From Candidatus Electronema halotolerans (GTDB taxonomy: Bacteria > Desulfobacterota > Desulfobulbia > Desulfobulbales > Desulfobulbaceae): a stretch of 32,000 nucleotides of DNA. The position numbers and the translations under genes are program-made. The notes beneath the pieces were generated by a model. The model was not told where the DNA came from. It worked only from the letters and a program-made list of their open reading frames with translations, and ran no database searches. This document shows, in pieces, positions 3,587 to 23,000 of the stretch. Each line of letters opens with the position of its first letter. Position 1 is the first letter of the stretch. The stretch lies in contig OW818675.1 of the NCBI GenBank assembly GCA_942493095.1, forward strand, positions 1,110,001-1,142,000, given 5' to 3'.

Positions 3587-3587
3587 A

Positions 3588-6101: not shown

Positions 6102-7087
6102 TCACTGCCTCCCTGCCTGACTGGCGAAGAAAGATTGCGTTGAGCTGACGATGGTTCAGCTTCAGGTTTCAAAGGAACTGCAACCGCATCACTGGAAGAA
6201 ATCGGCCAGTCTCCGGCATTGAGCATCAGAGGCAGGCCATCTTTTCCCCCGCCAATGATCACCACCTTGGCATTCGGCGAAGAGGCCAGTTCAAGCGTGG
6301 CCTGAACACCATGCCAATGCAGAACTTTGTCGTCCATTGTTTTGGAAATATTCTCCGCATATTTTTGGATGCCAAGGGATTCAATCTCTTTTTTCTCCGC
6401 CTCCCTTCTGGCTGTTTCGAGACGAAAGACGTAGGATTGCAAGACCTGCTCATGCACTAACTTTTCTTCAATCGCATCTTTGATCTGCTTGGGAAGAACA
6501 ATTTCCCGGATGATGATGTCATCAACAATGACGTACTTCTGGCCGACTTCATCAATGGCGTTCTTGACTAAGGTTGTCAGCAGGTGCCCCTTGTTGGTGT
6601 AAATGTCTTCAGCAACATGAACGCCAAGCCCTTTGCGCAGCACGGATTCAATCTGAGGCAGAATAATTTTATTGGGATAATCCGGGCCGATCCGCTGGTG
6701 AAGCACGCCGAGCAGCTCAAAAATAGGCCGGTAGCGAACCGCCAGTTTCAGGGTGACTGGCAGACCGCTGCTGGTCAGCACGTCAAACTCATGGCGGATG
6801 ATCTGGACACGGGCATCATAGATGGCCATGGTGTTGAAGGGATTGATCACCAGGAAGCCTTCAGGATAGACCCGGACAGTTTCTGTGCCGCCCCAGAAAG
6901 GCCGGTACATGACCCCTGCCTCGCCAGCTTCAATCCAGATGAACATCCGGTTCCAAAGGATGATGACAGCTATGGTGCAGGACAGGCCGAGCATAACCCA
7001 ATGCAGCCAGTTGTCCCGGACAGAATAGCGCAGCCGCTCCAGCAGAGGCGGTTTCGGGCGCGGGGCGGCGGATTTCAGACTGCTCAT
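6098..7087 (-). CDS. SPFH/Band 7 (prohibitin-like) domain protein with N-terminal TM anchor (329 aa)
   Basis: A TM segment WVMLGLSCTIAVIILW is followed by a PHB-like core (VMYRPFWGG..VYPEGF..INPFNTMAIYDARVQ..LTSSGLPVTLKLAVRYR) and a coiled-coil-like stretch (ETARREAEKKEIESLG). It starts 16 nt after the ABC stop. Confidence 0.85.
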   Translation of the reverse strand: MSSLKSAAPRPKPPLLERLRYSVRDNWLHWVMLGLSCTIAVIILWNRMFIWIEAGEAGVMYRPFWGGTETVRVYPEGFLVINPFNTMAIYDARVQIIRHEFDVLTSSGLPVTLKLAVRYRPIFELLGVLHQRIGPDYPNKIILPQIESVLRKGLGVHVAEDIYTNKGHLLTTLVKNAIDEVGQKYVIVDDIIIREIVLPKQIKDAIEEKLVHEQVLQSYVFRLETARREAEKKEIESLGIQKYAENISKTMDDKVLHWHGVQATLELASSPNAKVVIIGGGKDGLPLMLNAGDWPISSSDAVAVPLKPEAEPSSAQRNLSSPVRQGGSE

Positions 7088-7103: not shown

Positions 7104-9260
7104 TCAGGGATGGGCGATCAGCAGCAGAGCGTTGCTCCGGCGCAGAACGCAGTCCAAGGCAATATGCAGGGTTTCCGGGTCAAGAGCGGCAAAACTTTCA
7201 TCCAAAATAATCAAATCCGCCTTCTGGAGCAAGGTGCGAGCGACAAATAAACGGCTGCGCTCGCCATGCGAGAGCCGCCAGCCGCCTTCGCCGACCATCT
7301 GCTGGATGCCCGCAGGCATGGTCTCCAGCAGCTCGCCCAGCTTCAGCTCCTGACAGATTGCCTCAGCCTCAGCCAAGTCCTCCTCTGAGGGCGGCCACGC
7401 CCTGCCCATGAGCAGGTTGAAGGCGAATGTCTCTGTGAGCACATAGTTCTGATGAAACTGGGGGGCAATGACAACCCGCCTGCGCCAAGTCTCTTCGCCC
7501 AGCACGTTCCGGCTCAGGCCAAACAAGCGCAATGTGCCGGAATCAGGAAGTTCCAGTCCGCTCAACAGGGCGGCCAAGGTCGATTTGCCGCTGCCGGAGG
7601 CCCCTTCCAAGAGCAGATGCTGGCCTGCCTGCACAGTCAGGCTGCACTGTTCCAAGATCAATTGGCGGGCCGCCTGCGGGCCAGGATAGGCAAAGCTGAC
7701 GTTATCGGCTGCAATGATTGGACTGCCTGCCTCCTGCCGCTGTTTGAAGCGGGCCGGAGAAATATATTTGGCTGCCTTCTGCGCCCGTTCCCGCTCTGCC
7801 GCCTGATAGAGCGGATGGACCTGCTGCCAGCTGATCATGGCTTCAATAAGCTGGCGGATGCTCTGGGTGCATTGATCCAAGGCCGAGGCTGCCAGCAGGG
7901 TGCCGCCCAAGCTGACTGCCAGCAAAGTGAGGTTGGAACCAGCAGTGAAAGCGGTGAAAAGCAGGCTGACCGGCAGCCAGCCCCGGCGGCCAGCGGCACT
8001 TTCCACTGCCGCCTGCATGGTGTCCGCCCTTTTGGCCAGCATTGCGTACTTGGCAAGGAGCTGATCTTCCAGCTTATGCCGTTCCAACGGCCTTTCCTGA
8101 GCAAGGCGGGTGCGATGGCCTGCCATGCGCTCGACAAGGTCGCAGGTCATCCGCCGATGATGATTCTGCCAGGCGAGCATCCGCTGATGCCAAATGCGGC
8201 TCAAGAGGCCGATGCCAGCCAGCCAGGCCAGCAGGAGCAGGCCGTGGGCAAGGCCACCGGAGCCGAGTATCAGCACCATTGCCGCGATCAGGGCCTCCAT
8301 GCAGGCGGTGAAGGCGGCAAAGGCCATGCTCATGCCCAAGGCCTCCAGCTTTTCTATTTCCTGGACATTGCCAAGAAAGTGGCCGCTGCCCTGATGCCGT
8401 ATCTCTGCCGCCTTTAATTGCAGGATGCCGCTCAAAAGACGGCTGCGCAGGAGCACGCCGAACCGGAGCGAGAGGCGGTTTTTGATCTGGACAGTGATTA
8501 GCTGCAAGGGAATCATGCTCAGGAGGAGCAGACCCCATATCTGCATGGCGGTCAGCTCTGGCCGCCCTTGCAGCAGGGTTCTGCCGATCAGCACAGACGC
8601 GGCCAGCATGAACAGGCGGTTCAGCAGAATTGCGCTGACAAGCCAGCCGCCCTGCTGAGGGAAATCAGCCCGGCGGAGCTGCTGGAGGAAATTTGCGCTG
8701 GGCGGCAGGCGCAGCAGCCAACAGCCGTCAATCTTGGCCGCTGCCAGACACTCGCGCAGCAAAGACTGCCGCGCTTCAGCCCGCTGTCCGCCATGCGCGT
8801 CAACGGTGTCCAGCATCTCTTCGACAGCAGGCAGCAGCGGGGCCTCCAGCTCTTGGGTCAGCAGCTTGCGCACTGCTTGAATATCCACGGCATGGATTCT
8901 GCCGTCTCGGCCCAGCAGCTGGACTTTGCGGCGGCGGCTGCCGACTGCGGCAATGAAGCGCGGCGCGACGCAGGATTCCGCTTCCGGGAGCAAAAAGAGC
9001 GCAGGCCCGCCGCTGGCCAGCAGCCGTTCCACATCCGCGTAGGCGGTTTCTGCGGCCAAGGATTCCAAGCCAAGCTGCTTGGCTCCGTTCTCCAGCCAAG
9101 CACTGATCAATTCCTGATTTGGCTCCGGCTCTGCGAATGGCTGCAGGTCTGCTGTCGGCGCAACAGCGTTTGGCAGCAGAGCCGCTTTGCGGGCCAGCAA
9201 AGGAACTGCTTCATGAAATGAACTGACAGGCCATGCGGCCTCGATGGGCAGTGGATTCAA
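7104..9260 (-). CDS. ABC exporter, fused permease/ATPase with ~200-aa N-terminal extension (718 aa)
   Basis: Walker A GASGSGKST, atypical signature LSHGERSRL, Walker B LIILDESFAALD and a hydrophobic TMD in the middle. The only possible start is TTG at 9260, because an in-frame TAA lies 2 codons upstream. No clear SD is present. Confidence 0.85.
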   Translation of the reverse strand: MNPLPIEAAWPVSSFHEAVPLLARKAALLPNAVAPTADLQPFAEPEPNQELISAWLENGAKQLGLESLAAETAYADVERLLASGGPALFLLPEAESCVAPRFIAAVGSRRRKVQLLGRDGRIHAVDIQAVRKLLTQELEAPLLPAVEEMLDTVDAHGGQRAEARQSLLRECLAAAKIDGCWLLRLPPSANFLQQLRRADFPQQGGWLVSAILLNRLFMLAASVLIGRTLLQGRPELTAMQIWGLLLLSMIPLQLITVQIKNRLSLRFGVLLRSRLLSGILQLKAAEIRHQGSGHFLGNVQEIEKLEALGMSMAFAAFTACMEALIAAMVLILGSGGLAHGLLLLAWLAGIGLLSRIWHQRMLAWQNHHRRMTCDLVERMAGHRTRLAQERPLERHKLEDQLLAKYAMLAKRADTMQAAVESAAGRRGWLPVSLLFTAFTAGSNLTLLAVSLGGTLLAASALDQCTQSIRQLIEAMISWQQVHPLYQAAERERAQKAAKYISPARFKQRQEAGSPIIAADNVSFAYPGPQAARQLILEQCSLTVQAGQHLLLEGASGSGKSTLAALLSGLELPDSGTLRLFGLSRNVLGEETWRRRVVIAPQFHQNYVLTETFAFNLLMGRAWPPSEEDLAEAEAICQELKLGELLETMPAGIQQMVGEGGWRLSHGERSRLFVARTLLQKADLIILDESFAALDPETLHIALDCVLRRSNALLLIAHP

Positions 9261-9322: not shown

Positions 9323-10192
9323 TCAGCGCAATGACTTGACAAGACGAAACCCTAAAAAGCTGTATCGGTCATTCGGATCGTACTTGATGCGGCAGGCGGC
9401 CCGGCAATGCTTGGCATCTGCGCTCCAAGCACCGCCACGGGCAATATGCAGCCGCCCCTGACTGCAAAGCGGATCAACAATGCCTTCACGATAGGTGTCC
9501 GAGACAATCATATCTTTTTTCTCATCCCAGTCGCATTGGTCCAAGCATCGCTCCAGCACATTGCCATGCACATCATGCAGACCCCACCTGTTTGGCCGCG
9601 ACCAGCTGACAGGAAGCGTCTGGTTTCTGTTCACGCCGCTGTTCTGACAGCCCGGCAGCGGATTCACTGCATCATTGAAATTGACCTCTTCTGCTGAAAG
9701 GCAGTCTCCAAAAGCAAAACGGGCATTGCCGCCTGCCCGGCAGGCATATTCCCATTCCGCTTCAGTAGGCAGGCGGCACAGTTCTCCCTCCTCTGCCAGC
9801 CAATTGATAAACGCCTCAATGTCGTGCATGGAAACACAGGTCACAGGATGCTCATCTGTTTGCGCAAACCCCGGAGTCTGCCACGTGCAGGAGGAATTTT
9901 TGCTCCATTCTTCCTCAAACTGGCCACCCGCACCATCACCAAATAAACCAATGGCACCGTCTTCCTTTTCCGCTTGGGTGAGGAAACCGGTCGCATCAAC
10001 GAAACGCCGCCACTGCCCAACTGTCACCGGCGTTGTCTGGAGATAAAAACCTTTGCTCAGTGTAACCTTGTGCAGCAGTTCATCAGCATATCTGCCCACC
10101 TCATCTTCAGGACTGCCCATCATGAAGGTGCCAGGCTGGATATGAACAAATGTCATGTCGAGCCGGTTTTGCAGACTCTTTTCATTGGTCAT
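9323..10192 (-). CDS. FGE-sulfatase (SUMF1/EgtB/PvdO) family protein, paralog 2 (289 aa)
   Basis: Motifs: FVHIQPGTFMMGSP, HKVTLSKGFYLQTTPVTVGQW, HPVTCVSMHD, RLPTEAEWEYACRAG, WGLHDVHGNVLE, RGGAW....CRAA..., LGFRL. I prefer the ATG at 10192, which has AAGGAG at 10199-10204 (6-nt spacer), over the track start at 10252. It overlaps the NRPS B stop by 11 nt. Confidence 0.85.
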   Translation of the reverse strand: MTNEKSLQNRLDMTFVHIQPGTFMMGSPEDEVGRYADELLHKVTLSKGFYLQTTPVTVGQWRRFVDATGFLTQAEKEDGAIGLFGDGAGGQFEEEWSKNSSCTWQTPGFAQTDEHPVTCVSMHDIEAFINWLAEEGELCRLPTEAEWEYACRAGGNARFAFGDCLSAEEVNFNDAVNPLPGCQNSGVNRNQTLPVSWSRPNRWGLHDVHGNVLERCLDQCDWDEKKDMIVSDTYREGIVDPLCSQGRLHIARGGAWSADAKHCRAACRIKYDPNDRYSFLGFRLVKSLR

Positions 10193-13100
10193 TGTTCTCT
10201 CCTTGGTCTGGTGCAAAATATTCAGACAGAATTGCCGTCCAGTTCTCCACATGCGGCGAGAACATCATGCTCATGTGATTTCCTCCGACCCAATGTTCTC
10301 TGACTTCAGCCGTAGTGCATTCAGGCCAGCCTTGGGTCACGAATTCTCTATTGGCCAAGCCGCCGAAGCCGTCAGTTGATTCACTGGCGCAAAACAGATG
10401 AATTGGACAATGAAGATTGCCCGGCATGACATAGACTTGATCTGCCTGGCAGGTGCGCTTATAGACATTGACCATTGCTTTCAGCTCGTCAAGCGAGGTG
10501 TTGGGAGCAAAGATATTGTGCTGCCGGAACAGTTCCATGACATGCTCATACGCAGCCTCCAGATTTCCAAAGGCTTCCAAGTCTTGGACAGAGACGTTCA
10601 AATCTGTCTGCTGTGTTGTCTCAAAGGCATAGACAATATCATGCAGCCAATTATACTCATTGTAAAAGTCCATTTCATCATGTTCGGGCGGCGAGTTCGG
10701 CGCATAGGTGTCCAAGATGGCAAGACCCTGCACCTGCTCTCCTTCCTGCTCCAGCAGCCAAGCCAACTCATAGGCGACTCGTCCGCCAGCAGAATGGCCG
10801 ACTAAGAAGTGCGGACCAGTAATGTGCTGCTGCCGCAGATTCTGCCGATGAAAGAGTGCCAGCTCCTTTAAATCTTGAATTGCAGCAAAGGAGCCGTCCA
10901 AGCCCGGCGATTGCAGCGCATAAACAGGATACATTCCGCCCAAGCTGGAGGCAAGAGAATAAAAATACATGACCGAACCAGTCGCTTCCGGCAGCAGGAG
11001 CATGACACCCTTGCCCGCCTTCCCGCTCCGCAGCGGAATCAGGCAAGAGGAATCATCTGTTCTCCTTTCACGCAGCTGCTCGGCCAGCTCGGCGACGGTC
11101 GGGCTTTTAAACAGGCTGCTGACAGGCAGTTTCAGGTCAAACTGCTGGTGTATCTTGGCCATGAGCTGCAAGGCCAGCAGGGAATGGCCGCCGAGTTCAA
11201 AGAAGTTGTCATGGATGCTGATCCTGCTTTGGTTGAGCACGGCTTCCCAGATGGAAATCAGTTGCAGCTCAGTTGCGTCACGGGCAAATTTTTTCTCCTC
11301 CTGAAGATAGCTGCTCACCTCAAGTAATGCCAGCATGTTGCGGTCAATCTTGCCGCTGGGCGCAATCGGCATGGTCTCAACAACGCAGAAGGCTGCCGGA
11401 ATCATGTAGTCCGGCAAATGCTGCTGCAGCCATGAGCGCATGGCCTGCGTCTCCACCGGACATCGGACGGTGAGATACGCAACAAGCTGGCTGTCCGCTT
11501 CATCCTCTCTCCGCAGCAGGACCACCGCCTCGCTCACCGCCTCATGCTGGCGCAGCACAGCTTCAATCTCACCCAGTTCGATGCGGAAGCCGCGCAGCTT
11601 GATCTGATTGTCAACTCGGCCAATATATTCTATATTGCCATCAGGAAGCCATCTCGCCAAATCGCCGGTCTTGTACACCCGCTGCCGCTCGCCAAGCAGC
11701 TCAAGCGTGACAAACTGTTGTTCCGTAAGTTCAGGCCGGTTCAAATAGCCCCGCGCAAGACTCGCTCCGGCAATGCAGAGTTCTCCAGCAATGCCAAACG
11801 GCTGAATTTGATAATCCGCATTCAGAATATAGAGTTTGGTGTCAGCGGTGGATCTGCCAATCGGCACGGTTGAACAAGTTTCCGGCAGCGGATTGGGCAG
11901 CGTGTAGAGGGATGAGGCAATAACTGCCTCGGTCGGCCCATATTCATTGATGCAGGTCACATTTGGAAAGAGCTGCTGGGTTTTCCGCGCCAAGGCAACG
12001 GGAAAAACATCGCCGGCAAAAATCAGCAGACGCATCCTGTCGAGCTGCCGGGTCACATTTTCAACTTCACACATCTGCTGCCAGTAAGGTGCAGGAATAT
12101 CAACGACTGTGGCTTTTGTTTCATGCAGATATTCAATCAAGTCAAGAGGATTGATCAGTTCTTCCCGCAGCATTATCAAAGCTGCTCCGCCGAGCCATGT
12201 GCAGAAAATCTGTTCAATGGAAGGATCAAAACTTAGCGGCAGAAATTGCAGCACCCTGTCATCGCTGTCTATCCTGTAATAGTCACGCATATAGAGGCAA
12301 TGCAAGGCGATGGGGCCATGCTCCACGCATACGCCTTTTGGCAGTCCGGTTGAGCCGGAAGTATAGATGACATAGGCCAAATCCTCCGGCTTGCTGCGCC
12401 GCTGCGGATTGCCCAGAGCAGCCGCCTGCGCTGCTGTCTTGTCAACATCAATAATAACAAGCTGTTCAAGAGCTAAAAATTTCTCTTTTAACTGTTCTTG
12501 AGTCAGGACAATTTTAGTGCTGCTGTCTTCCAGCATGAAACAAAGACGCTCTGCCGGATAATCTGTGTGCAGCGGCAAATAGGCAGCACCTGTTTTAAGC
12601 ACCGCCAGCAGGGCAATCAGCATGGCCGGTGAACGCTCGACGCAGAGGCCGACTAAGGTGTTTGCCTGCAACCCATGATCTTGAATAAGAGAATGCGCCA
12701 GCGCATTGGCCCTGTCATTGAGCTGCTGATAGGTCAGCTGCTGTTCTTCAGTGATGACGGCAACAGCATGAGGTGTTTCTGCAACTTTGGCTTCAAAAAA
12801 ATCAGCCAATGCCTGCTTGCGTGAATAGGTGCTGGCGGTGTCATTCCATTGCTGAATGCAGCGCGCCTCCTCTGCTGTCAGCAGCGGCAGGGTGCGGATA
12901 TCAGCCTGCGGATTGTCAACTATGCCTTGCAGCAGCACGTCAAAATGTTCTGCCAAACTGATGATTGTCGCCTTGTCAAAAATATCTGTGGCATATTCCC
13001 ACCAGCAGGACAGTTGCTTGTCCTTTGTCACTGCGGTCAGGGTCAGGTCAAATTTGGCCACAGGATATTCAACATCCATGACGCTGACTTCCAAATCCGG

Positions 13101-16100
13101 CAGCGAGAGCGTGGAAACCTCATTATTTTCCAAGGCGAACATTACCTGAAACAAGGGGCTGTGGCGCATGCTGCGCACAGGATGCAGCTCTTCGACCAAA
13201 ATGTCAAAAGGAATGTCCTGATGTGTGTACGCATCCAAACAGGTCTGGCGGGTTGCCCGCAGGAGATCAAGAAAGCTCAGTTTCGATTCCCGCTTTTCAA
13301 GAGTGGCAAAGTTGGTCCGCAGAACCAAGGTGTTGACAAAAAAACCAATCAGATTTTCTGTCTGCTTCTGTGTCCGGTTGGCAATCGGCGTGCCGACACA
13401 GATGTCATCCTGTCCGCTGCACCGGGCAAGCAAAATATTGAAGGCTGCCAATAAGGTCATGAAAAGTGTGGCATTATTCTCCTGACCAAATGCGGCCAGC
13501 TTTTCACTTAATTTCTCAGAAAGCTGAAACTGGCAAACATCACCATGATATTTCCGCTCCTCTGTGCGCGGTCTGTCAAAAGGCAGCTCAATTGCATCAG
13601 GAATGCCTGCCAGCTGTCGTTTCCAATAGTCAACCTGTTCTTGTAGGATTTCACCTTGCAGCCAATCTTTCTGCCATGCCGCATAGTCACTGTAGGCGAT
13701 TTCAAGTCGGGGCAGGACTGGGCGTTCTTCCTGAGCAAAAGCAGCATAGGCCGCCTGCCATTCCTTGACAAAAAGCACCATGGACCAGCCGTCGCTGACA
13801 ATATGGTGCATGTTGAGCAGCAGAACAAACTCTTTTTCATTGAAAAATAAACATTCGGCCCGAAACAGGGCATCCTGCGTCAGGTCAAAAGGTGCAATGG
13901 CGTGCGCATTGACACGTCTTGCCACTTCCTCTTCTTTTTGATCATCAGGAAGACCAGTCAAATCATGAAATTGCAAAAAATCCATCTGCGCAGTTGGCGC
14001 AATGCTGATTTTCGCCTGTCCATTTTGAACATTGAAATAGGTGCGCAGGGTGCTGTGACGCTCCAAGATCAGCATCAGACTTTGCTTGAGAGCACTGGTG
14101 TGCAAATGGCCTGAGAGCTGCAAGGCCAAGGGAATATTATATTGCTCGCTGATGCCGCCCTCAAGCTGACTTAGAAACCATAAGCGCCGCTGGGCAAAGG
14201 AGAGCATCAGCTCCGCATTGTCCGGCTGCATGGCAATTGGCGGCAGGGTGATGGTGTCACGGCAGTCGGCAATCGCGTCAACCAGACCGGAGAGGGTCGG
14301 ATATTCAAAGACCTTGCGGACCGGCAGCTCAACCTGAAACAATTCTCGAACCCGGGCGACCAACTGCATGGCAAGCAGGGAGTTGCCGCCCCGCTCAAAA
14401 AAGCTGTCCTCCCTGCTGACCTGTTCCGCGTTCAGGAGCTTGCCCCACATCGCAGCAAGCAGCTCTTCTTCTTGGGTCAAAGGCTTTGCGCCTTCTGCGC
14501 CGCTTGCTTCCGGCACTGGCAGCGCCTTGCGGTCAATCTTGCCATTCGCTGTCAGCGGGAAGAATTCAATGGCAATAATGTGCTTCGGCAGCATGTAGTT
14601 GGGCAGACGTTCCTGAAGCCAGTCATGCAGTTCTTCAATATTGCAAGAAGCGGCTTGGCTTGTGCAATAGGCGGCTAAAAATTTGCCATTACCATGTCCC
14701 TGCAAAGTGACCAGCGCATCTTCCACTCTTGGATGCTGCCGCAAGGCCGCTTCAATATCGCCCAATTCAATACGGAAGCCATTGATCTTGACTTGGAAGT
14801 CATCGCGGCCTAAAAATTCAACATTGCCGTCGGCAAGATACCGCCCCAAGTCTCCTGTCCTGTACAGACGCTCGCCAGTGCGGGGATGCCTGATGAAACT
14901 GGCCGAAGTTTTTTCCTCATCACCCCAGTAGCACTGGGCCAAGCCAAGGCCGCCAATATACAGACTTCCCGGAACGTGGACTGGGCAAGGTTCCAAAAAT
15001 TTATTGAGCACATGAATCTGCTGATTGCGCAGCGGTCGGCCATAAGGGATGCTTGTCCAAGTTGGATCAACATGAGTAATGGGATAATGAATTGACCAGA
15101 TTGCAGCTTCTGTTGCGCCGCCAAGACTGATCACATCAGCCTGCGGAAACAGTTTCTTGATTTTGTCTGGCAGGCTTGTCGGAATCCAATCGCCGCTCAT
15201 CATGACCAGCCGCAATGAATCAGGAATAAGATCAGACTGTCCGGTAATATAGTCAACATAAATCTGCATCAGGGCAGGAACGGTGTTCCACAGGCTGACA
15301 TGATGCCGAGCCATCATTTTGGCCCAATACGCAGGTTCCTGCGCAAATTCAGGCTGCGGAACAATGACTGTTCCGCCGACGCTGAGAAGACCGAAAATAT
15401 CATAGACAGAAAGATCAAAACTCAGCGACGACAGAGCCAAAATACTGTCATGTTCAGTGACTGAAAAACGCTCATTGATATCGTCAATCGTATTTATTGC
15501 GGAACGATGACTGACCACCACCCCTTTTGGCTGTCCTGTTGAGCCAGAGGTGAAGATGACATAGGCAGTTTCATCAGGATGGATGCTGCTGTTCAGATTC
15601 TCTCCTGAATATGCTGCCAGAAGCAACTCCTCATAATAAACAGTCATGCAGCCTTGCGGCAGTTGCAGCTGTTCTCCAGTGCTTCGAGATGTTATGAGAT
15701 ATTTTGCTCCACTCTGGGCCAAAATTTGTTGAATCCGCTCTGCCGGATAGGTCGGATCAATCGGCAGATAGGCCATGCCAGCCTTGAGAACCGCCAGCAC
15801 ACTGACAATCATTTCGGGCGAACGGGGAAGGCTGACGGCAATAAACGGATTCTTTTCCCGATCAGGCTTGCAGGTGAGAAGATGATGGGCCAGCTGATTG
15901 GACTGCTGATTTAATTGTCTGTAGGTGACAATCTGATCAGCAAAGATAATCGCGGTATTGTCTGGATTTGCCCCAGCCTGCTCTTCAAAGTGATTGAACA
16001 GGGTGCAGTCTGGGACAGCTCCGGCTGTCTGATTCCATATTTGCTGCTGCTGATATTCCTGTTTGGTCAGCATATTCAGCTTGGCAACAGCTTTATCTGG

Positions 16101-17888
16101 CTGCTCAACAATGTCCGTCAGCAAGGTCATGAAATGATCATTCATGCGGACAATGGTCTCTTCGACAAATAAGTCTGTCGCATATTCCCAGTTGCAATGA
16201 ATCTGCCCCTCCTTTTCTTCGGCAAACAGGGTTAAATCAAATTTTGCAATTGGATAATCGAGATCATAAAGTTCTGTTTGCAAGCCGGACAGCTCAAGAT
16301 CAGGCAGAGGTGTTTGAAAGGCGAACATGACCTGAAAAAGAGGACTGTGACTCATGTTGCGCTGCGGTTGCAACTGCTCAACCAGCATCTCAAAAGGAAT
16401 GTCCTGATGAGCATAGGCATCCAAGCAGGTCTGGCGTGTTTTTCGCAGTAATTCCGTAAAGCTTTCCTCCGGCTCAATCTGGCTGCGCAGCACTAAGGTG
16501 TTGACAAAAAAACCAATTAAACTTTCTGTGAGGCTGTGTGTGCGGTTGGCTATTGGGCTGCCAATGCAGATGTCACGCTGACGGCTGTACCGAGACAGCA
16601 AGATGCTGAACGCAGCCAGCATGATCATGAATGTTGTCACGCCTTCCTGTCTGCTGAGTGCAATCACGGCTTGGCTTAATGCCGAAGGCAGACTGCTGGC
16701 ATAACGCCCTCCCTGATAACTGGTTCGGGCCGGACGTGTTTTATCTGTCGGCAATTCTAATAATTCAGGAATATCTGCAAGCTGCCGCCGCCAGTATTCC
16801 ATCTGCCGTTGCAGAACTTCACCTTGCAGCCACTGCCGCTGCCATGCGGCAAAATCACTGTATTGGATTGCAAGCTCAGGAATGTCAGGTTGATGATTTT
16901 CCGCAAATGCATTATAGGCCAGTTGCAGTTCACGCAGCAGGACATCAACAGACCAGCCGTCACTGGCAATATGGTGCGTGTTGAGCATGAATGCAGCCTG
17001 ATCGAGATGAAGATGCAGCAGTTTGAATTGGATAGGAAAGCTGCGCTGTAAATCAAAAGAGATCATGCTGAACTGATCAATCTCTGTTTTGATGGCAGAC
17101 TGCAAAGCATCTCCTTGAAAATGTCTGAGATCATGCTCTTGCAGCAGAATGTCATTTTTTATCTCATGCACTTCTGCTGATCCTTCTCCGTTGACGGAAG
17201 GAAACGAGCTGCGCAGGACGTGATGCCGCTCCAAGAGCCAGTGCAGACTTTGCTCCAAGGCGGAAATATTCAGCTTTCCGGTGAGCAGCCATGCGCCGGG
17301 CATGTTGTAATGCACTGCATCTTCCTCAAACTGATCAAGAAACCAGAGGCGCTGCTGGGCAAAGGAGAGCTGTTTCCGCGCCTTTTCTGGCTGCGCTGTG
17401 ATTGGCGGCAGACTCGCTGCCGTCTGATTTTCTCCGTCAAGAACTGAAGCAAGGCTGGATAATTCAGGATGGGTAAAAACACTGCGCACAGGCAGTTCGA
17501 TGTTAAATATGTCGCGAATCCTGGCAACAAGCTGAATTGCTGAAAGCGAATGTCCGCCTATGGCAAAAAAATTGTCATCTCTGCTAACAGATTTCACGTG
17601 CAGTAAAGCACTCCACAGGCCAGCCAGCAGCTCTTCTGTTGGCGTTACCGGCTGCCGACCTGAAGTCAATTCTTCAATTTTGGGAACAGGCAATGCCTTG
17701 CGGTCAATTTTGCCATTTGCTGTCAACGGCATTGATTCCAAAGGAATGAACAGCGACGGCACCATGTAATGCGGCAGACTCTCCTGAACAAGACTTCGCA
17801 GCTCCGCAATCAATTCATTGTGCTGCAAGCCTTTATTCTGACAGGGGGTGTTGGCGTAACGGGACCAAACGCTTGTGCAGGTGTTCAT
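10182..17888 (-). CDS. Non-ribosomal peptide synthetase B (2568 aa): [A9-A10 tail]-T-C-A-T-C-A-T-TE
   Basis: Domain motifs were read directly (see domain features). An in-frame TAA 8 codons upstream of the ATG fixes the start. The SD is weak. GC is about 45% in the 15001-15100 sample. Confidence 0.95.
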   Translation of the reverse strand: MNTCTSVWSRYANTPCQNKGLQHNELIAELRSLVQESLPHYMVPSLFIPLESMPLTANGKIDRKALPVPKIEELTSGRQPVTPTEELLAGLWSALLHVKSVSRDDNFFAIGGHSLSAIQLVARIRDIFNIELPVRSVFTHPELSSLASVLDGENQTAASLPPITAQPEKARKQLSFAQQRLWFLDQFEEDAVHYNMPGAWLLTGKLNISALEQSLHWLLERHHVLRSSFPSVNGEGSAEVHEIKNDILLQEHDLRHFQGDALQSAIKTEIDQFSMISFDLQRSFPIQFKLLHLHLDQAAFMLNTHHIASDGWSVDVLLRELQLAYNAFAENHQPDIPELAIQYSDFAAWQRQWLQGEVLQRQMEYWRRQLADIPELLELPTDKTRPARTSYQGGRYASSLPSALSQAVIALSRQEGVTTFMIMLAAFSILLSRYSRQRDICIGSPIANRTHSLTESLIGFFVNTLVLRSQIEPEESFTELLRKTRQTCLDAYAHQDIPFEMLVEQLQPQRNMSHSPLFQVMFAFQTPLPDLELSGLQTELYDLDYPIAKFDLTLFAEEKEGQIHCNWEYATDLFVEETIVRMNDHFMTLLTDIVEQPDKAVAKLNMLTKQEYQQQQIWNQTAGAVPDCTLFNHFEEQAGANPDNTAIIFADQIVTYRQLNQQSNQLAHHLLTCKPDREKNPFIAVSLPRSPEMIVSVLAVLKAGMAYLPIDPTYPAERIQQILAQSGAKYLITSRSTGEQLQLPQGCMTVYYEELLLAAYSGENLNSSIHPDETAYVIFTSGSTGQPKGVVVSHRSAINTIDDINERFSVTEHDSILALSSLSFDLSVYDIFGLLSVGGTVIVPQPEFAQEPAYWAKMMARHHVSLWNTVPALMQIYVDYITGQSDLIPDSLRLVMMSGDWIPTSLPDKIKKLFPQADVISLGGATEAAIWSIHYPITHVDPTWTSIPYGRPLRNQQIHVLNKFLEPCPVHVPGSLYIGGLGLAQCYWGDEEKTSASFIRHPRTGERLYRTGDLGRYLADGNVEFLGRDDFQVKINGFRIELGDIEAALRQHPRVEDALVTLQGHGNGKFLAAYCTSQAASCNIEELHDWLQERLPNYMLPKHIIAIEFFPLTANGKIDRKALPVPEASGAEGAKPLTQEEELLAAMWGKLLNAEQVSREDSFFERGGNSLLAMQLVARVRELFQVELPVRKVFEYPTLSGLVDAIADCRDTITLPPIAMQPDNAELMLSFAQRRLWFLSQLEGGISEQYNIPLALQLSGHLHTSALKQSLMLILERHSTLRTYFNVQNGQAKISIAPTAQMDFLQFHDLTGLPDDQKEEEVARRVNAHAIAPFDLTQDALFRAECLFFNEKEFVLLLNMHHIVSDGWSMVLFVKEWQAAYAAFAQEERPVLPRLEIAYSDYAAWQKDWLQGEILQEQVDYWKRQLAGIPDAIELPFDRPRTEERKYHGDVCQFQLSEKLSEKLAAFGQENNATLFMTLLAAFNILLARCSGQDDICVGTPIANRTQKQTENLIGFFVNTLVLRTNFATLEKRESKLSFLDLLRATRQTCLDAYTHQDIPFDILVEELHPVRSMRHSPLFQVMFALENNEVSTLSLPDLEVSVMDVEYPVAKFDLTLTAVTKDKQLSCWWEYATDIFDKATIISLAEHFDVLLQGIVDNPQADIRTLPLLTAEEARCIQQWNDTASTYSRKQALADFFEAKVAETPHAVAVITEEQQLTYQQLNDRANALAHSLIQDHGLQANTLVGLCVERSPAMLIALLAVLKTGAAYLPLHTDYPAERLCFMLEDSSTKIVLTQEQLKEKFLALEQLVIIDVDKTAAQAAALGNPQRRSKPEDLAYVIYTSGSTGLPKGVCVEHGPIALHCLYMRDYYRIDSDDRVLQFLPLSFDPSIEQIFCTWLGGAALIMLREELINPLDLIEYLHETKATVVDIPAPYWQQMCEVENVTRQLDRMRLLIFAGDVFPVALARKTQQLFPNVTCINEYGPTEAVIASSLYTLPNPLPETCSTVPIGRSTADTKLYILNADYQIQPFGIAGELCIAGASLARGYLNRPELTEQQFVTLELLGERQRVYKTGDLARWLPDGNIEYIGRVDNQIKLRGFRIELGEIEAVLRQHEAVSEAVVLLRREDEADSQLVAYLTVRCPVETQAMRSWLQQHLPDYMIPAAFCVVETMPIAPSGKIDRNMLALLEVSSYLQEEKKFARDATELQLISIWEAVLNQSRISIHDNFFELGGHSLLALQLMAKIHQQFDLKLPVSSLFKSPTVAELAEQLRERRTDDSSCLIPLRSGKAGKGVMLLLPEATGSVMYFYSLASSLGGMYPVYALQSPGLDGSFAAIQDLKELALFHRQNLRQQHITGPHFLVGHSAGGRVAYELAWLLEQEGEQVQGLAILDTYAPNSPPEHDEMDFYNEYNWLHDIVYAFETTQQTDLNVSVQDLEAFGNLEAAYEHVMELFRQHNIFAPNTSLDELKAMVNVYKRTCQADQVYVMPGNLHCPIHLFCASESTDGFGGLANREFVTQGWPECTTAEVREHWVGGNHMSMMFSPHVENWTAILSEYFAPDQGENNDQ
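10185..11045 (-). other. NRPS B domain: thioesterase (TE)
   Basis: The GxSxG motif FLVGHSAGG has its Ser codon at 10791-10793. ILDTYAP and GGNHMSMM are candidate Asp/His positions. The domain is terminal in the ORF. Confidence 0.8.
11073..11276 (-). other. NRPS B domain: T6 (PCP)
   Basis: DNFFELGGHSLLALQL. Confidence 0.8.
11334..12815 (-). other. NRPS B domain: A5, specificity unlike the other four
   Basis: Motifs: LTYQQLNDRAN, YVIYTSGSTGLPKG, FDPSIEQIF, NEYGPTE, YKTGDLARW, GRVDNQIKLRGFRIELGEIE, LPDYMIP, PSGKIDR. The code read by eye against GrsA numbering is D-P-E-D-I-A-E-I-A-K. Confidence 0.8.
12909..14207 (-). other. NRPS B domain: C5 (LCL-type)
   Basis: LSFAQRRLWFL, MHHIVSDGWS. Confidence 0.8.
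14265..14480 (-). other. NRPS B domain: T5 (PCP)
   Basis: DSFFERGGNSLLAMQL. Confidence 0.8.
14514..16016 (-). other. NRPS B domain: A4, Cys-type code
   Basis: Motifs: LSSLSFDLSVYDIFG, LWNTVPALM, MMSGDWIP, ISLGGATEAAIWS, GRDDFQVKINGFRIELGDIE, LPNYMLP, NGKIDR. The code read by eye is DLYNMSLIWK. Confidence 0.8.
16089..17372 (-). other. NRPS B domain: C4 (LCL-type)
   Basis: LSFAQQRLWFLDQ; THHIASDGWS with the HH codons at 16971-16976. Confidence 0.8.
17439..17645 (-). other. NRPS B domain: T4 (PCP)
   Basis: DNFFAIGGHSLSAIQL. Confidence 0.8.
17685..17888 (-). other. NRPS B N-terminus: orphan A-domain C-terminal tail (A9-A10), the missing end of module 3
   Basis: MNTCTSVWSRYANTPCQNKGLQHNELIAELRSLVQESLPHYMVPSLFIPLESMPLTANGKIDRKALP. 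It is collinear with RLWPSYANTPYQEDADRLQLPAELRAFIKKTLPDYMVPAAFILMEAMPLTPNGKIDRKALP at 31808-32000. Confidence 0.8.
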
Positions 17889-17950
17889 CTGGAAGTTTTC
17901 TTTATCGCATTAGGAGCGGGTTGAATTTTCTCAGCAACTTCTCTTTCCAA

Positions 17951-19084
17951 TCAAAAGGTTGTAAAAGAAGTCAATTTACGGAAAATAGATTCTATATGGG
18001 GAAGCAGTTCCGCAGGCTCCTGATCATCCTGAATGCGCTGTAGCCACCCTGCCTTGCATTCACAGTCAAGTCCAGCAAAGGCAGAGGAATTTTGACAGCG
18101 ATTGAATAAATGTATGGCTTCTTTCGTTTCCTGATTGCAGGCAGGACAATTTTCACTGCAAGCAAGGGCTTCCACAGTGTACGTCGGTGGACTGACATAA
18201 ATTTCAGTTTTCAATCCCAATGCTTCGCGTCGATGTAAAATTTCATCGAGACTCCATAAACGGGGAAGAGTGTACAGACCATGCTGCCAGAGATCATGCA
18301 TTAACGTGTGCTGCTCAATCGTCGCCAGTTCAAAATCAATTCTGGCAACATGGCATGATTCAAGATAACGCAAACTGTCAACTATATCCTCTATAGCCAT
18401 TTTTTCTGTCAAAAAAGGCGGCTTGAGCATGATCAGCGGCACCAGACGCACGCCATGCCGTTGCAAGATTTCCACTTTTTCTTCAAAAAGTTCAAGAGAG
18501 AAATTTTTATTGACACAGAGATTGCGTACTGTCTCGTTTGCTGATTCAAAACCGACCGCAATCTCCAGTTCAATCGTACCAAGAACTTTTTTCAAGGCGG
18601 CTATCTTTTCTTCTTCTATATCAATAACTTTCGTTTCGATAACAATTCTCCGAGCAGACGGCACTTCAGCAATCATGCTGCATATTTGCAAAACAACATC
18701 AAAATCTATCTCCCGTTCTTCAAACAGGCTGCCATCATTATATAAGCTGAAGATAGGATAATTTTGTGCTATGACATCACTGTTTGACAAGACAAGCGAT
18801 ACTTGATGAAGATAATCCTCATTTGGTATCTTATTCCCAAAATTCGTTGCATTCCAAAATCCGCAGAAGGTGCATCCTCCATTGTCATTAGCCCAAGTGC
18901 ATCCGGTTCCACGAAGGAACAGCACTAAACGGTCAACATACTCCCCATGTAAATAACTTTTTCGCAAATCTGTAAAAATTACTTCTTCAAGCTCATTATG
19001 AGAACGATGTATATGCGCAGCCTGTTTTCGTAACTTAGTCATATATTGCCTGATCTGTGATCTCAGTTCACTTTGTTTGACCAT
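17951..19084 (-). CDS. Radical SAM-like protein, Elp3-related (TIGR01210/TIGR01212-like) cluster spacing (378 aa)
   Basis: LRGTGCTWANDNGGCTFCGF (C-x8-C-x2-C), then SLYNDGSLF. The C-terminal Cys-rich region is ACSENCPACNQ (C-x3-C-x2-C) ..NRCQ..LDCECK. I prefer the ATG at 19084, which has AAGGAG at 19091-19096 (6-nt spacer), over the track start at 19180. GC is about 40% in the 18481-18580 sample. Confidence 0.75.
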   Translation of the reverse strand: MVKQSELRSQIRQYMTKLRKQAAHIHRSHNELEEVIFTDLRKSYLHGEYVDRLVLFLRGTGCTWANDNGGCTFCGFWNATNFGNKIPNEDYLHQVSLVLSNSDVIAQNYPIFSLYNDGSLFEEREIDFDVVLQICSMIAEVPSARRIVIETKVIDIEEEKIAALKKVLGTIELEIAVGFESANETVRNLCVNKNFSLELFEEKVEILQRHGVRLVPLIMLKPPFLTEKMAIEDIVDSLRYLESCHVARIDFELATIEQHTLMHDLWQHGLYTLPRLWSLDEILHRREALGLKTEIYVSPPTYTVEALACSENCPACNQETKEAIHLFNRCQNSSAFAGLDCECKAGWLQRIQDDQEPAELLPHIESIFRKLTSFTTF

Positions 19085-19195
19085 TTTTTTCTCCTTTTTG
19101 AAAAAAGTTGGCGACTTTGAAAAAGATGAAGGGTGGATGAAAGAGGACAGTTTCAGCTCTCTTTGCTTGTCATGGAGCAAACGCCTCAGCGCATA

Positions 19196-20068
19196 TTATG
19201 CTTCCCGCAGTAAACGAAAACCAAGATGATTGTATCTTTTATTGTCATCATAGGCGATGCAATGGGCGGAACGACAGAACGTTGGATAATAGTTCCACGA
19301 TCCGCCGCGAGCCATTCGTAATGGGCCAGTCACGGATAACGGATCCTTGATGCCGTCAAGGCAGGTGTCCACCCAAAAATAACACTTTTCATGATAGACT
19401 ATGCATTTATCTTGACACCATTCCCATAGATTGCCATGCATGTCATATAATCCCCAAGCATTTGGAGCGAAGCTCGCCACAGAACAAGGCCTCAAGTCAA
19501 GCTCATCATCAGGATTCAAAGGCGCAAGACGGTAGTTTTCCTCGTAATCAGCAAGACTTCTGTCTAAATGATTGGCAAGTTTGGTGGTGATCTCGTCGCC
19601 AAAATTATAGGCAGTTGTTGTGCCTGCCCGACAGCTGTACTCCCATTCTGCTTCCGTTGGAAGACGATACACTCCATCTTCCTGCTGATTCAGCCATCTG
19701 ATAAATATCTGCACGTCAATCCATGACACACAACTCACCGGATAATCATCTTCCTGCTCATATCCTGGGTTGTCCCAGTATATATCCTGATATCTACGGC
19801 CATCTTTGTTCAAACGTGTGGCATACGCTCCATCCTCAATTTCAGCTTGCGTCTTATAACCAGTTTTTTCGACAAAATGCCGCCACTGCCCCACTGTCAC
19901 ATGGGTATCTTGCATGTAAAATCCTTTTGTCAGGATAACTTTATGCAGTATTTCGCTGTCATATCTCCCAACTTCAGTTTCTGGTGACCCCATCATAAAG
20001 CTACCAGCGGGAATATAACAGAACTGCATTTTCAGAGCATTTGTCAGTTTCTTTAGCGAATTGCTCAT
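19196..20068 (-). CDS. FGE-sulfatase (SUMF1/EgtB/PvdO) family protein, paralog 1 (290 aa)
   Basis: Motifs: FCYIPAGSFMMGSP, HKVILTKGFYMQDTHVTVGQW, YPVSCVSWID, RLPTEAEWEYSCRAG, WGLYDMHGNLWEW, RGGSW....CRSA, LGFRL. AAGGTG lies at 20073-20078. It starts 24 nt after the NRPS A stop and has no signal peptide. Confidence 0.85.
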   Translation of the reverse strand: MSNSLKKLTNALKMQFCYIPAGSFMMGSPETEVGRYDSEILHKVILTKGFYMQDTHVTVGQWRHFVEKTGYKTQAEIEDGAYATRLNKDGRRYQDIYWDNPGYEQEDDYPVSCVSWIDVQIFIRWLNQQEDGVYRLPTEAEWEYSCRAGTTTAYNFGDEITTKLANHLDRSLADYEENYRLAPLNPDDELDLRPCSVASFAPNAWGLYDMHGNLWEWCQDKCIVYHEKCYFWVDTCLDGIKDPLSVTGPLRMARGGSWNYYPTFCRSAHCIAYDDNKRYNHLGFRLLREA

Positions 20069-20092
20069 TTTTCACCTTTCAAGGTCACAGCA

Positions 20093-23000
20093 TCACGCAA
20101 AATGATGCCAAGTTTTTTTAAAGAGAAAGCTCTCTTCAGTCGTTGCTGTTTCACTCATATCTTTTCGACAAAATGCAACAGCATAGTGGTAAGGGCTATC
20201 GTAACTGATGATGCAGGCGAAATTTGCCTGATCAGCTAACCGGCACAATTCATCGGGATCAATTCCCTGCTCTCTTTGCCGCAGAGAATTTCGCAATTCT
20301 TTCACGGTGCCCTCAGCGTTGTGTAATTGCGCCAAAAGATGCTTCTCAGCGGACAATCGGGCGTTGGGTATATTCTTTATGGCAAAAGATCGGTTCTCAG
20401 CTAAAAGTTGTGCAATATTTGATAGATTCACGTCCTGCTCCTGCCAGTCGAGCCAGATTGTCTCCGGCTGCTCCGGTTCCTGATCAAGTCGCAAGATGAC
20501 GTCGTAACGAAAACGATTCATTTCGTTTTGCCCTGCACCAGCTTTCAGTTGAATTTGGACATTCTTGATACGCGGGAATTCCTGATGTATTGCCTTGAAC
20601 AAATCAGGATCAATGAACAGTTCTTCCTCTTCCTGCACAGCTTTCTGGATGTGTTGCCGCAATACAGATAAAGGCAAGGAATCTTCTGCCTGATGGAGTT
20701 GAACAGAAGCGTGAAACGCTTCCAGCAGCTTGAAATTGCGTATGTCGCCTATAAAAATGCTGCCGCCCGGCGAAACAGCCTCCATTGCTTTTTCCAAGAC
20801 CGAAATACAATAATCAACTGAAGGAAAATATTGAATAACAGCATTCATGGCAATAACATCCACAGAACCGTTTTCAATTCCTTGAAAGGCATCAGCGGCG
20901 TTTCTTTGCTCCTGTAGCAGTTGAGAAAAGTCAACGCCAATGTATTGTTGGCAGGAAGGAGCTATGCAGGAGGAAAACGCCCCAATTCCGCAGCTAATTT
21001 CCAGCAAACGCTCTGGCTTGAGGGAGAGAATCTTTTCAACCGTGTCATTCAACCACGACATCTCCCCCTTGGCACTGCCTGTTTTTTTCTTCTTTGACTC
21101 AGATTCAGGGACAAAATAGGCCAGCAGCCGCTTGCCATCTATTTCATCATGGGCAATGACTGTCGCTTCTTTCACCAAAGGATGTCGACAAATGGCTGTT
21201 TCAATCTCGCCCAGCTCAATGCGGAAGCCGCGAATCTTGACCTGAAAGTCGTCGCGGCCAAGGAACTCAATGCTGCCGTCTGGCAGCCAGCGGCCTAAAT
21301 CGCCGGTGCGGTAGAGGTGCTCGCCGGTGCGCGGATGGATGATGAAGCTGGCGGCAGTCTTCTCCTCATCGCCCCAGTAACACTGCGCCAAACCGATGCC
21401 GCCGATATAAAGCTGTCCCGGAACCAGCAGCGGACAAGGTGATAATTTTTCATCCAAAATATGAAAGGATTGATTGCGCAATGCTTTGCCGTAAGGAATG
21501 CTCTTCCACGCCGGATCAACGTGGTCAATCGGATGCCAGATTGACCAGATTGAGGCTTCGGTGGCCCCGCCGAGACTGATGGTTTGCGCCTGCGGCCAGA
21601 CAGTGCTGATGCGCTCCGGCAGATTGAGCGGAATCCAGTCGCCGCTCATCATGACCAGCCGCAGGGCGGCATTGCCCTCAATTTGCTCGGCATAAATCTG
21701 CATCAGGGCCGGGACGCTGTTCCAGACCGTCACCTGATGACGGCTCGCCAGCTCGGCCCAATGCGTCGGCTCCTTGGCTTTTTCCTGCTCAGGCATGACC
21801 ACTGCGCCGCCAGCGGCGAGCAGGCCGAAGATGTCATAAACCGACAGGTCAAAACTCAATGAAGACAGGGCCAGCACCCGGTCATTCTGGCCAACGGCAA
21901 AGCGTTCGTTGATATCGAGAATGGTGTTGGTCGCGCCACGATGGCTGATGGCCACTCCCTTGGGCAGACCGGTCGAACCGGAAGTAAAGATGATGTAGGC
22001 CAAGTCATCCGGCTGCGTTGCGACTGCCGGTTTTTCCGGCGGAAATGCAGTCAGATCAAGCTGCTCCGCTGTCAGGGTCCGCACGTTTTCCGGCAGCTCC
22101 AGACTGTCCGCAACCCGCTGATGGGTGATCAGGCTGCCTGCGCCGCTGCCCTCCAGAATGCGCTGAATGCGCTCCGCCGGATAATCAGGATCAACCGGCA
22201 CATAGGCTGCCCCGGCCTTGAGCGCGGCCAGCACGCTGATGATCATCAGCGGAGAACGTTCCAGAGCGACCGCGACCAAGGGCTGCCTGCTCGTTTCTGT
22301 TTTTATTGCCAGAAGACAATGCGCGAGCCGACAGGCCTGCTGATCAAGCTGCTGATAGGTGAGCTGCTCATTTTTATGAATGAGAGCAGCACTGTCCGGC
22401 GATGCCGCAGCCTGCCGCTCGAACAGGTCAAGCAGGGTGCAGTCAGGAACCGGCCCGGTCTCCGGCGCGTTCCACTGCTGAATCTGCGCCAGCTCCGGCT
22501 GTGTCAGCATATCCAGCTGGCCGACAGGCTGCTCCGGCGCGCTGATCAAAGCAGCCAGCAAGGTGCGCAGATGGCCCCAGAAACGGTCAATGCTCTCAGC
22601 ATTGATCCGGCAGCTGTCGTGCAGCAGATAAAAATCTGCTGTCTCGCCCGGATCAACCATGATTGTCAAGGGAAAGCTGGTCGCGTTCTGACTCCACATC
22701 TGCTCAATGCGGTAACTCTCATCCGCTGTTGCCTCGTTGTCGCCTCGTGGAAAATTTTCCACAGCCAGCAAGGTTTCAAAGAGAGCCTCATCTTGAGCAA
22801 GTTCGCTTTGCTCTTGAATATCAACTAATGAGCTGAAACCATGCCGACTGTCAGCCTGATGCAGTTCCTGCACGTGCTGGAGCAGCTCGCTGCCGGACAG
22901 GGAATTGTCAATTTGCAGGCGAAATGGCAGTGCGTTGATCAGCATGCCTACCATATCCTCAATACCGGCAAGAGACGCATTGCGTCCGGAGATCATCACG

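Follow-up and report, generated by a model that had tools for sequence, protein, structure and literature searches.

Two small proteins of the formylglycine-generating enzyme (FGE) fold, FGE1 and FGE2, are encoded next to non-ribosomal peptide synthetase (NRPS) genes in a 32,000-nucleotide stretch of genomic DNA (hereafter the window) of Candidatus Electronema halotolerans, a multicellular, filamentous cable bacterium. Each is 100% identical to an NCBI protein of this organism encoded on a 3.2-Mb contig. We propose that FGE1 and FGE2 are diverged, cytoplasmic FGE-fold accessory proteins dedicated to a conserved assembly line that associates Cys-rich NRPSs with a radical S-adenosylmethionine (SAM) enzyme, and we give this proposal a probability of about 0.4. 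Judging from their sequences, they appear to be neither copper FGEs nor iron-dependent sulfoxide synthases. As the known metal sites are missing, they are probably specialized helper proteins.

The genes in question and their relevant segments are as follows (A, adenylation domain; MT, methyltransferase domain).

20093..32000, minus strand: NRPS A; its 5' end is outside the window, and the frame is open up to the window edge
20096..21142, minus strand: C-terminal portion, beyond motif A8, of NRPS A's last A domain, with the inserted MT domain (Methyltransf_23 and Methyltransf_12 matches; translation checked)
19196..20068, minus strand: FGE1, 290 aa (PF03781, E 1.5e-52)
19262..19297, minus strand: FGE1 loop WNYYPTFCRSAH, residues 258-269, located where FGE has its catalytic loop (aligned to human FGE with HMMER)
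17951..19084, minus strand: radical SAM gene, 377 aa, RaSEA-related, with a C-x8-C-x2-C motif (TIGR01210 and PF04055 matches)
10182..17888, minus strand: NRPS B (Pfam domains, motif map, specificity codes)
17679..17888, minus strand: first 70 residues of NRPS B, with motifs A9 (LPHYMVP) and A10 (NGKIDRK) (LgrA alignment)
9323..10192, minus strand: FGE2, 289 aa (PF03781, E 6.9e-50)
9392..9427, minus strand: FGE2 loop WSADAKHCRAAC, residues 256-267 (HMMER alignment to wild-type human FGE, 2aii)

Gene junctions and protein family

FGE1 begins 24 nt after the stop codon of NRPS A (20093-20095), and the gap holds a Shine-Dalgarno-like site, AAGGTG. The mechanically called open reading frame (ORF) of FGE2 extends to 10252. 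Its best start is at 10192 (MTNEK...), which is backed by the NCBI call P0121 and by the orthologues. NRPS B stops at 10182-10184 and overlaps FGE2 by 11 nt (ATGACCAATGA), with an AAGGAG site 8 nt upstream.

Both proteins match PF03781 (FGE-sulfatase) over its full length (profile positions 4-255 of 255), with 179.2 bits for FGE1 and 170.5 bits for FGE2, the gathering score being 23.3. Aligned with each other, they show 45% identity (BLASTP E 2e-83), and they have in common the motifs G[ST]FMMGSP, RLPTEAEWEY.CRAG, HGN..E, RGG.W and LGFRL. The FGE domain begins at residue 14-17 in both, and no N-terminal hydrophobic segment was found, the highest Kyte-Doolittle mean over 12 residues being 1.1 for FGE1 and 0.7 for FGE2. 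Thus, neither protein has a signal peptide. A preliminary description of this DNA had reported the two junctions, cytoplasmic proteins of about 290 residues devoid of signal peptides, and FGE/SUMF1-family membership with the above motifs. The coordinates and the junction sequence, the lengths and N-termini of the proteins, and their full-length profile matches bear out these points.

Structural relatives and phylogeny

The AlphaFold2 models of FGE1 and FGE2 have mean predicted local distance difference test scores of 94.6 and 94.0, respectively. In Foldseek searches, the top match for both is PvdO of Pseudomonas (5hha; E 1.3e-20 for FGE1 and 7.4e-21 for FGE2), followed by human and bacterial FGEs and then by CalU17, TvpA, PorK, ToxD and EgtB/OvsA. 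PvdO is the best match in sequence as well as in structure, with phmmer E values of 7.5e-26 and 1.2e-22 and TM scores of 0.74-0.82. Like the two cable-bacterium proteins, it has the FGE fold without the FGE cysteine pair, and its gene goes with an NRPS pathway. Genetic data show that pyoverdine maturation depends on PvdO for its last oxidation, but the purified protein had no cofactor and was inactive (PMC6206403). Nevertheless, PvdO is exported by the Sec machinery and works in the periplasm with PvdP, whereas FGE1 and FGE2 have no signal peptide and belong to a Cys-rich NRPS system with a radical SAM partner. Orthology with PvdO was discarded on the basis of that missing signal peptide and of scores of 135.7 and 113.4 bits, to be compared with the cut-off of 500 for NF051459 (dihydropyoverdine dehydrogenase). 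In the literature, we found no paper linking FGE-like proteins other than PvdO with NRPSs, or cable bacteria with NRPSs.

The copper FGEs of humans (SUMF1), Thermomonospora curvata and Streptomyces coelicolor have the same fold (TM about 0.75, 25-31% identity, Foldseek E about 1e-18). No gene for a sulfatase, the FGE substrate with the C/S-x-P-x-R motif, was seen within the window, to which that search was confined. CalU17 and ToxD are FGE-fold proteins of natural-product clusters (calicheamicin and toxoflavin, respectively) according to their PDB titles, with Foldseek E values of 1e-16 to 1e-12, but they are only 23-27% identical to FGE1 and FGE2 and serve other types of pathways.

The orthologues of FGE1 (P0002-P0007) are 61-81% identical to it, and those of FGE2 (P0122, P0027, P0123-P0125, P0009 and P0008) 53-77%. 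The next matches, at 45-56% identity, are generic FGE-domain proteins, mostly from Desulfobacterota, some of them fused to TIR, PEGA or CHAT domains. At E values up to 0.001, the family as a whole comprises as many as 208,441 representative clusters. In a neighbour-joining tree of 114 sequences, the FGE1 and FGE2 clades have bootstrap values of 100% and 83%, respectively. They come out as sisters, but with 26% only. A recent duplication within the cluster is therefore not established as their origin. The term 'paralogous' in the preliminary description holds inasmuch as both proteins belong to one family and are 45% identical, and is not established in the narrower sense of specific sister clades.

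Metal sites and clade-specific loops

Copper FGEs require two cysteines that bind Cu(I), Cys336 and Cys341 in the human enzyme. In the HMMER alignments, the position of the second copper ligand, Cys336, is occupied by Tyr261 in FGE1 and Ala258 in FGE2, and that of Cys341 by Cys265 and Cys263, respectively. The first of these positions is Tyr or Ala, never Cys, in 15 of the 15 NRPS-linked sequences. The second is Cys in all FGE1 orthologues and Ser in three FGE2 orthologues. Copper FGE activity of the SUMF1 type was rejected on both counts.

The models of EgtB, OvoA and SenA give 36-67 bits for cut-offs of 360-420, and the matches cover only their C-terminal, FGE-like halves (about model positions 167-413 overall; positions 167-412 of 413 for the NCBIfam EgtB model). 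In Pfam searches, PF03781 is the sole domain of the two proteins of about 290 aa, and no DinB domain was found. Without that domain there is no iron site of the EgtB/OvoA type, and this, together with scores far under the cut-offs, led us to reject EgtB/OvoA/SenA-type chemistry. The preliminary description had suggested formylglycine formation or sulfoxide and C-S chemistry on the peptide, and looking for copper or iron ligands as a check. As the copper Cys pair and the DinB domain of the iron site are both missing, these reactions are unlikely by the known mechanisms.

The residues found in place of the metal site are strongly conserved. The FGE1 loop WNYYPTFCRSAH has a conservation of 0.98, which makes it the joint-highest 12-residue window with GLYDMHGNLWEW, for a mean of 0.75 in the FGE1 clade. 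The FGE2 loop WSADAKHCRAAC reaches 0.92 within its clade, for a mean of 0.70. Only 17% of the loop columns are common to both clades. Twelve positions are invariant within each clade yet different between them, and five of the 12 lie in the loop. The conserved ionizable loop residues are Tyr-Tyr..Cys..His in FGE1 and Asp..Lys-His in FGE2. These data point to a canonical ligand site placed under strong clade-specific constraint, which would fit an enzyme or a specific binder equally well. Because each protein has its own conserved loop at the position used for ligands in FGE, EgtB and lectin-type domains, they most likely recognize different pathway intermediates.

An adenylation domain divided between two synthetases

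Within the window, NRPS A is organized as [..MT]-A9/A10-PCP-C-A(Cys)-PCP-C-A(Cys)-PCP-E-C-A(Cys, A3-A8)-MT-stop, according to the Pfam matches and the motif map (PCP, peptidyl carrier protein; C, condensation; E, epimerization). Its last module is devoid of A9, A10 and PCP. By the same criteria, NRPS B consists of an A9/A10 fragment followed by PCP-C-A(Cys)-PCP-C-A-PCP-TE (TE, thioesterase), the last A domain having the code DPEDIAEIAK. Four A domains of the window have the specificity code DLY[S/N/A]MSLIWK, those of NRPS A being DLY[S/N]MSLIWK. This code resembles DLYNLSLIWK, which we take to be the Stachelhaus code for Cys. The idea of a poly-Cys product in the preliminary description is thus supported by four Cys-type codes. 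To our knowledge, DPEDIAEIAK matches no described code; its three acidic positions suggest a cationic substrate. Copies of the DPEDIAEIAK-type domain (11290-12940 of the window) that are 53-66% identical to it are present on other contigs, two in L005 and one each in L009 and L027. The regions of NRPS A coding for Cys A domains (21168-21959, 25662-26468 and 28836-29642) are repeats with 93-99% nucleotide identity, which indicates a probable recent module duplication or gene conversion.

The order of the motifs, from A3 to A8, then MT, then A9 and A10, places the MT domain between A8 and A9, as in interrupted A domains. The insert is homologous to that of the TioS interrupted A domain A4aM4A4b (5wmm), its nearest solved relative (E 1.3e-34). 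Given this homology with an N-methyltransferase insert, N-methyl-cysteine is a reasonable prediction for the product. Here, the parts are not on one polypeptide, with a stop codon after the MT domain and A9, A10 and the PCP found on NRPS B, 2.2 kb downstream. In a search of solved structures, the joined end of NRPS A and start of NRPS B were colinear with a single A domain of LgrA, query residues 12-483 aligning with 178-637 of the chain and 846-915 (residues 28-97 of NRPS B) with 642-714. L005 and L006 have their split point in the same position, after MT and before A9, and the NRPS B start M..WS[RQ]YANTP.Q matches as well. At the window edge, the first module, which is not split, has this same sequence without a break. 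The two halves of one split, methyltransferase-interrupted Cys A domain are thus found on NRPS A and NRPS B, and FGE1 and the radical SAM gene sit inside one module rather than between two independent synthetases.

A search for unsplit relatives of the MT end of NRPS A yielded only proteins of at most 556 aa, some of them composed of MT and PCP, and thus does not bear on large synthetases. In L005 (9400-10000), a frameshift or a sequencing error may explain why NRPS A stops early, within the MT domain, with a separate ORF of 64 aa behind it. Split polyketide synthase (PKS) modules are known in BarE/BarF and LynB1/LynB2, with a break that adjoins the part made of the MT and the acyl carrier protein (PMC10127204). 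In contrast with TioS and with those split PKS modules, here the A domain itself is divided over two polypeptides, and two unrelated genes lie in the break.

Conservation of the arrangement

The order NRPS A (MT end)-FGE1-radical SAM is found in the window, in L005 and in L006-L008, with an 8-nt overlap in L006. Four independent Logan assemblies have an identical stretch that runs from the end of NRPS A over FGE1 to the radical SAM gene, and the arrangement is therefore not an assembly artefact. The window shares the order NRPS B (TE)-FGE2 with L005, L009/L010 (Ca. Electrothrix aestuarii), L012 and L027, and L009 and L012 also have the 11-nt overlap. Thus, the arrangement is recurrent in several related contigs without being universal. 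The recurrence of FGE genes next to NRPS stop codons, proposed as a check in the preliminary description, was found in several independent assemblies. Its view of one FGE per synthetase is nevertheless too simple, considering that NRPS A and NRPS B are halves of one split module, that FGE1 looks linked to the radical SAM gene and that one FGE2 orthologue is detached from any NRPS.

In L006 (12536-18384), the next NRPS gene is separated from the radical SAM gene by inserted genes for a 1288-aa STAND-type NTPase and for a helix-turn-helix (HTH)/HipA toxin-antitoxin pair, so that 6.5 kb of foreign genes can be accommodated in the split module. In Ca. Electrothrix aestuarii (L009 11272-15286), genes for heavy-metal P1B-type ATPases are found directly downstream of FGE2, and in Ca. 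Thiomargarita nelsonii (L011 1292-4480) such genes are found directly upstream of the radical SAM gene, a hint of some role related to metals.

The radical SAM gene and its probable link to FGE1

The radical SAM protein is a close relative, not a member, of the archaeosine radical SAM family RaSEA (TIGR01210; 196.6 bits for a cut-off of 212.15). Its gene, located between FGE1 and NRPS B, is not mentioned in the preliminary description, and neither are the split A domain and the low GC content that this gene shares with FGE1. Its ATG at 19084 is preceded by an AGGAG site. The orthologues of this protein are 68-74% identical, i.e. more conserved than most FGE orthologues.

The GC content at third codon positions (GC3) is 0.37 for the radical SAM gene, 0.44 for FGE1, 0.55 for NRPS B, 0.56 for FGE2 and 0.66 for NRPS A. 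The block at 17951-21100, with the MT domain, FGE1 and the radical SAM gene, has a GC content of 0.42-0.45 and a GC3 of 0.37-0.44, for a GC content of 0.52-0.63 in the remainder of NRPS A. This suggests that the low-GC block has a separate evolutionary origin. In L023 (43-4730), a 78% identical FGE1 orthologue is located 3.3 kb upstream of the RaSEA-like radical SAM gene, with no NRPS gene upstream. Between them are three small ORFs and a radical SAM/SPASM gene, and a small Cys-rich ORF whose product has a signal-peptide-like hydrophobic start precedes the FGE1 orthologue. The layout of L023 resembles that of a cluster for ribosomally made, post-translationally modified peptides (RiPPs) rather than for an NRPS product. 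The common low GC3 and the gene placement in L023 suggest that FGE1 goes with the radical SAM gene. FGE2 seems to go with the end of NRPS B that serves termination.

More distant radical SAM homologues (47-68% identity) are present in Ca. Thiomargarita nelsonii and on several metagenome contigs. Most of them are encoded beside other NRPS genes, and no FGE gene was seen near these homologues. The radical SAM enzyme is thus a wider NRPS partner, and FGE genes are confined to clusters of the cable-bacterium type. A scan of the genome collection with the radical SAM profile returned one locus only, that of Thiomargarita nelsonii, and no further cable-bacterium genomes; the distribution over cable bacteria is based on protein searches.

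In seven of seven contigs (L011, L016-L019, L021 and L022), the radical SAM gene is directly followed by a gene for a GntC/VioD-like pyridoxal phosphate (PLP) cyclodehydratase, with scores of 345-411 bits for a cut-off of 415. For six of these contigs, the coordinates of the radical SAM and GntC-like pairs are as follows.

L011: 4960-7236
L016: 932-3057
L017: 10001-12335
L019: 3788-6084
L021: 2583-4849
L022: 4029-6260

Together, they look like an uncharacterized cassette of two genes, whose product may be a cyclic guanidine amino acid formed independently of oxygen. The radical SAM enzyme itself probably makes a modified basic amino acid.

Other genes of the window

Downstream of FGE2 and further towards the start of the window are the following features.

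7104..9260, minus strand: ABC exporter, with fused permease and ATPase (ABC_tran match)
6098..7087, minus strand: SPFH/Band 7 protein (PF01145 match)
4833-5735: TauE-family permease
2003-4631: low-GC island with McrB-like/restriction genes

NRPS A, FGE1, the radical SAM gene, NRPS B, FGE2 and the exporter and SPFH genes are thus all on the minus strand. The best NCBIfam matches of the ABC protein are CydC/CydD thiol-reductant exporters and NHLP bacteriocin exporters, every one of them below cut-off. The same gene is found in the same place after FGE2 in L012 (93% identity), and this protein is probably the exporter of the cluster. The SPFH gene is syntenic with it and also has the same place in L012 (85% identity). 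The island at 2003-4631 (GC content 0.29-0.33) codes for a McrB-like AAA protein and for a 527-aa partner. The former matches a type II restriction-enzyme model of PADLOC (E 2e-33), and the latter has no family match. The island probably represents a restriction system acquired by horizontal transfer.

Possible roles of FGE1 and FGE2

In the pathway that we envisage, an NRPS of about six modules would build an N-methylated, Cys-rich peptide, and the RaSEA-like radical SAM enzyme and the ABC exporter would complete the line. Much like PvdO in the case of pyoverdine, FGE1 and FGE2 would help thiol-rich intermediates to mature, acting in trans. The split fourth module would be the place where FGE1 acts, together with the radical SAM enzyme, and FGE2 would come in when the thioesterase releases the product or afterwards. 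By analogy with PvdO, we tentatively favour such a maturation role, in which the proteins may act on the peptide and be catalytic.

Several observations weigh against our proposal. Relatives at 48-51% identity (P0126, P0127 and P0131) are found in unrelated contexts, not beside NRPS genes, and the nearest non-orthologues include TIR fusions, where this domain is taken to be a sensor. In a scan for NRPS motifs, none of the best 150 of the 208,441 family representatives turned out to be an FGE-NRPS fusion, but these 150 are mostly proteins with many tandem FGE domains, which makes for a weak test. Among the orthologues there are only two named cable-bacterium genomes, and the cluster is sporadic. 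In L025/L026, from the same metagenomes as L006/L007, a 63% identical FGE2 orthologue is located away from any NRPS gene. In addition to the Ser residues at the Cys341 position mentioned above, the FGE2 clade has lost the WEW motif of the family, and no set of catalytic residues could be named for FGE1 or FGE2.

The strongest competing explanation is that FGE1 and FGE2 are non-catalytic binders, which would serve as scaffolds that sequester, chaperone or neutralize a thiol-rich peptide or metal complex in the cytoplasm, or dock on the synthetases. We regard such a purely binding role, be it for chaperoning, self-protection or docking, as somewhat unlikely, yet nearly as likely as the maturation role. 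The absence of known metal sites is in line with it, and so are precedents. Many bacterial FGE domains are read as binding or sensor modules in published work. The Tsi3 immunity proteins of type VI secretion systems, which like FGE1 and FGE2 are devoid of the catalytic residues of FGE, EgtB and PvdO, protect through binding rather than catalysis (bioRxiv 10.1101/2021.05.21.445229). FGE domains have also been proposed to be sensors in conflict systems of multicellular bacteria (PMC10907252), and the host of FGE1 and FGE2 is itself multicellular. FGE domains are strongly over-represented in Thiomargarita, and FGE/C-type-lectin domains occur in STAND and TIR conflict systems. TIR-fused proteins of Desulfobacterota are among the nearest non-orthologous relatives of FGE1 and FGE2, at 47-56% identity. 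The overlapping or close starts would suit production in a fixed ratio with the synthetases, and a conserved loop would suit a binding site as well as an active site. However, the domains of conflict systems are fused to effectors or NTPases, whereas FGE1 and FGE2 are single-domain proteins of a biosynthetic operon, with no match to PADLOC defence models. The FGE-fold proteins of natural-product clusters (PvdO, and CalU17 and ToxD as titled in the PDB) are treated as biosynthetic, and the ionizable loop residues would also suit catalysis.

The other explanations have less in their favour. Adjacency might be devoid of functional meaning, two copies of a hugely expanded family having landed beside NRPS genes by chance, as the size of the family, the 50%-identity relatives in unrelated contexts and the detached FGE2 orthologue could suggest. 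This is improbable, considering that at least four or five lineages have kept the same junctions, among them the 11-nt overlap, in orthologues whose identity is as low as 53-61%. Copper oxidases of the FGE type might convert Cys residues of the peptide to formylglycine or a thioaldehyde, with the substrate thiol in place of the missing copper ligand. The Cys aligned with human Cys341 in FGE1 and most FGE2 sequences, and a substrate rich in adjacent cysteines, are compatible with this idea. We nevertheless consider it very improbable, because of the substitutions at the Cys336 and Cys341 positions described above. In a host of a sulfate-reducer lineage, a cytoplasmic O2-dependent step would also be awkward. 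The chances that the two proteins are iron enzymes forming C-S bonds, like EgtB, OvoA or SenA, are next to nil. The weak matches to the C-terminal halves of these models and the fold matches (E about 1e-10) speak for it, but the low scores and a domain content without an N-terminal DinB-type domain contradict it.

A bolder version of the proposal that FGE1 and FGE2 assist the assembly line can be drawn from the P1B-type ATPases, which in Ca. Electrothrix aestuarii adjoin the cluster and in Ca. Thiomargarita nelsonii the radical SAM gene. The exported N-methylated poly-Cys peptide could be a thiol-rich ligand for nickel, copper or another heavy metal, and FGE1 and FGE2 new cytoplasmic thiol-modifying enzymes without a classical copper or iron site, one of them partnering the radical SAM enzyme. 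We deem this combination extremely improbable. A role in the nickel-dithiolene fibres of cable bacteria is a long shot, since the cluster is sporadic among these organisms. The nickel ligand proposed for the fibres is a small C2S4-type dithiolene, not a peptide, which also counts against a link with the conductive fibres. We did not find the biosynthesis of the sulfur-coordinated nickel material discussed in PMC13534509.

Implications

The naturally split A domain, predicted to work across two proteins, is of interest for NRPS engineering. The recurrent pairing of radical SAM and GntC-like genes suggests that a modified basic amino acid could be made independently of oxygen. FGE1 and FGE2 offer a handle on an uncharacterized natural product of cable bacteria. 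To date, the FGE fold is associated with three chemistries and with ligand binding. Two conserved, cytoplasmic FGE-fold proteins without any known metal site, in a Cys-rich NRPS operon with a radical SAM gene, would define a further role for this fold.

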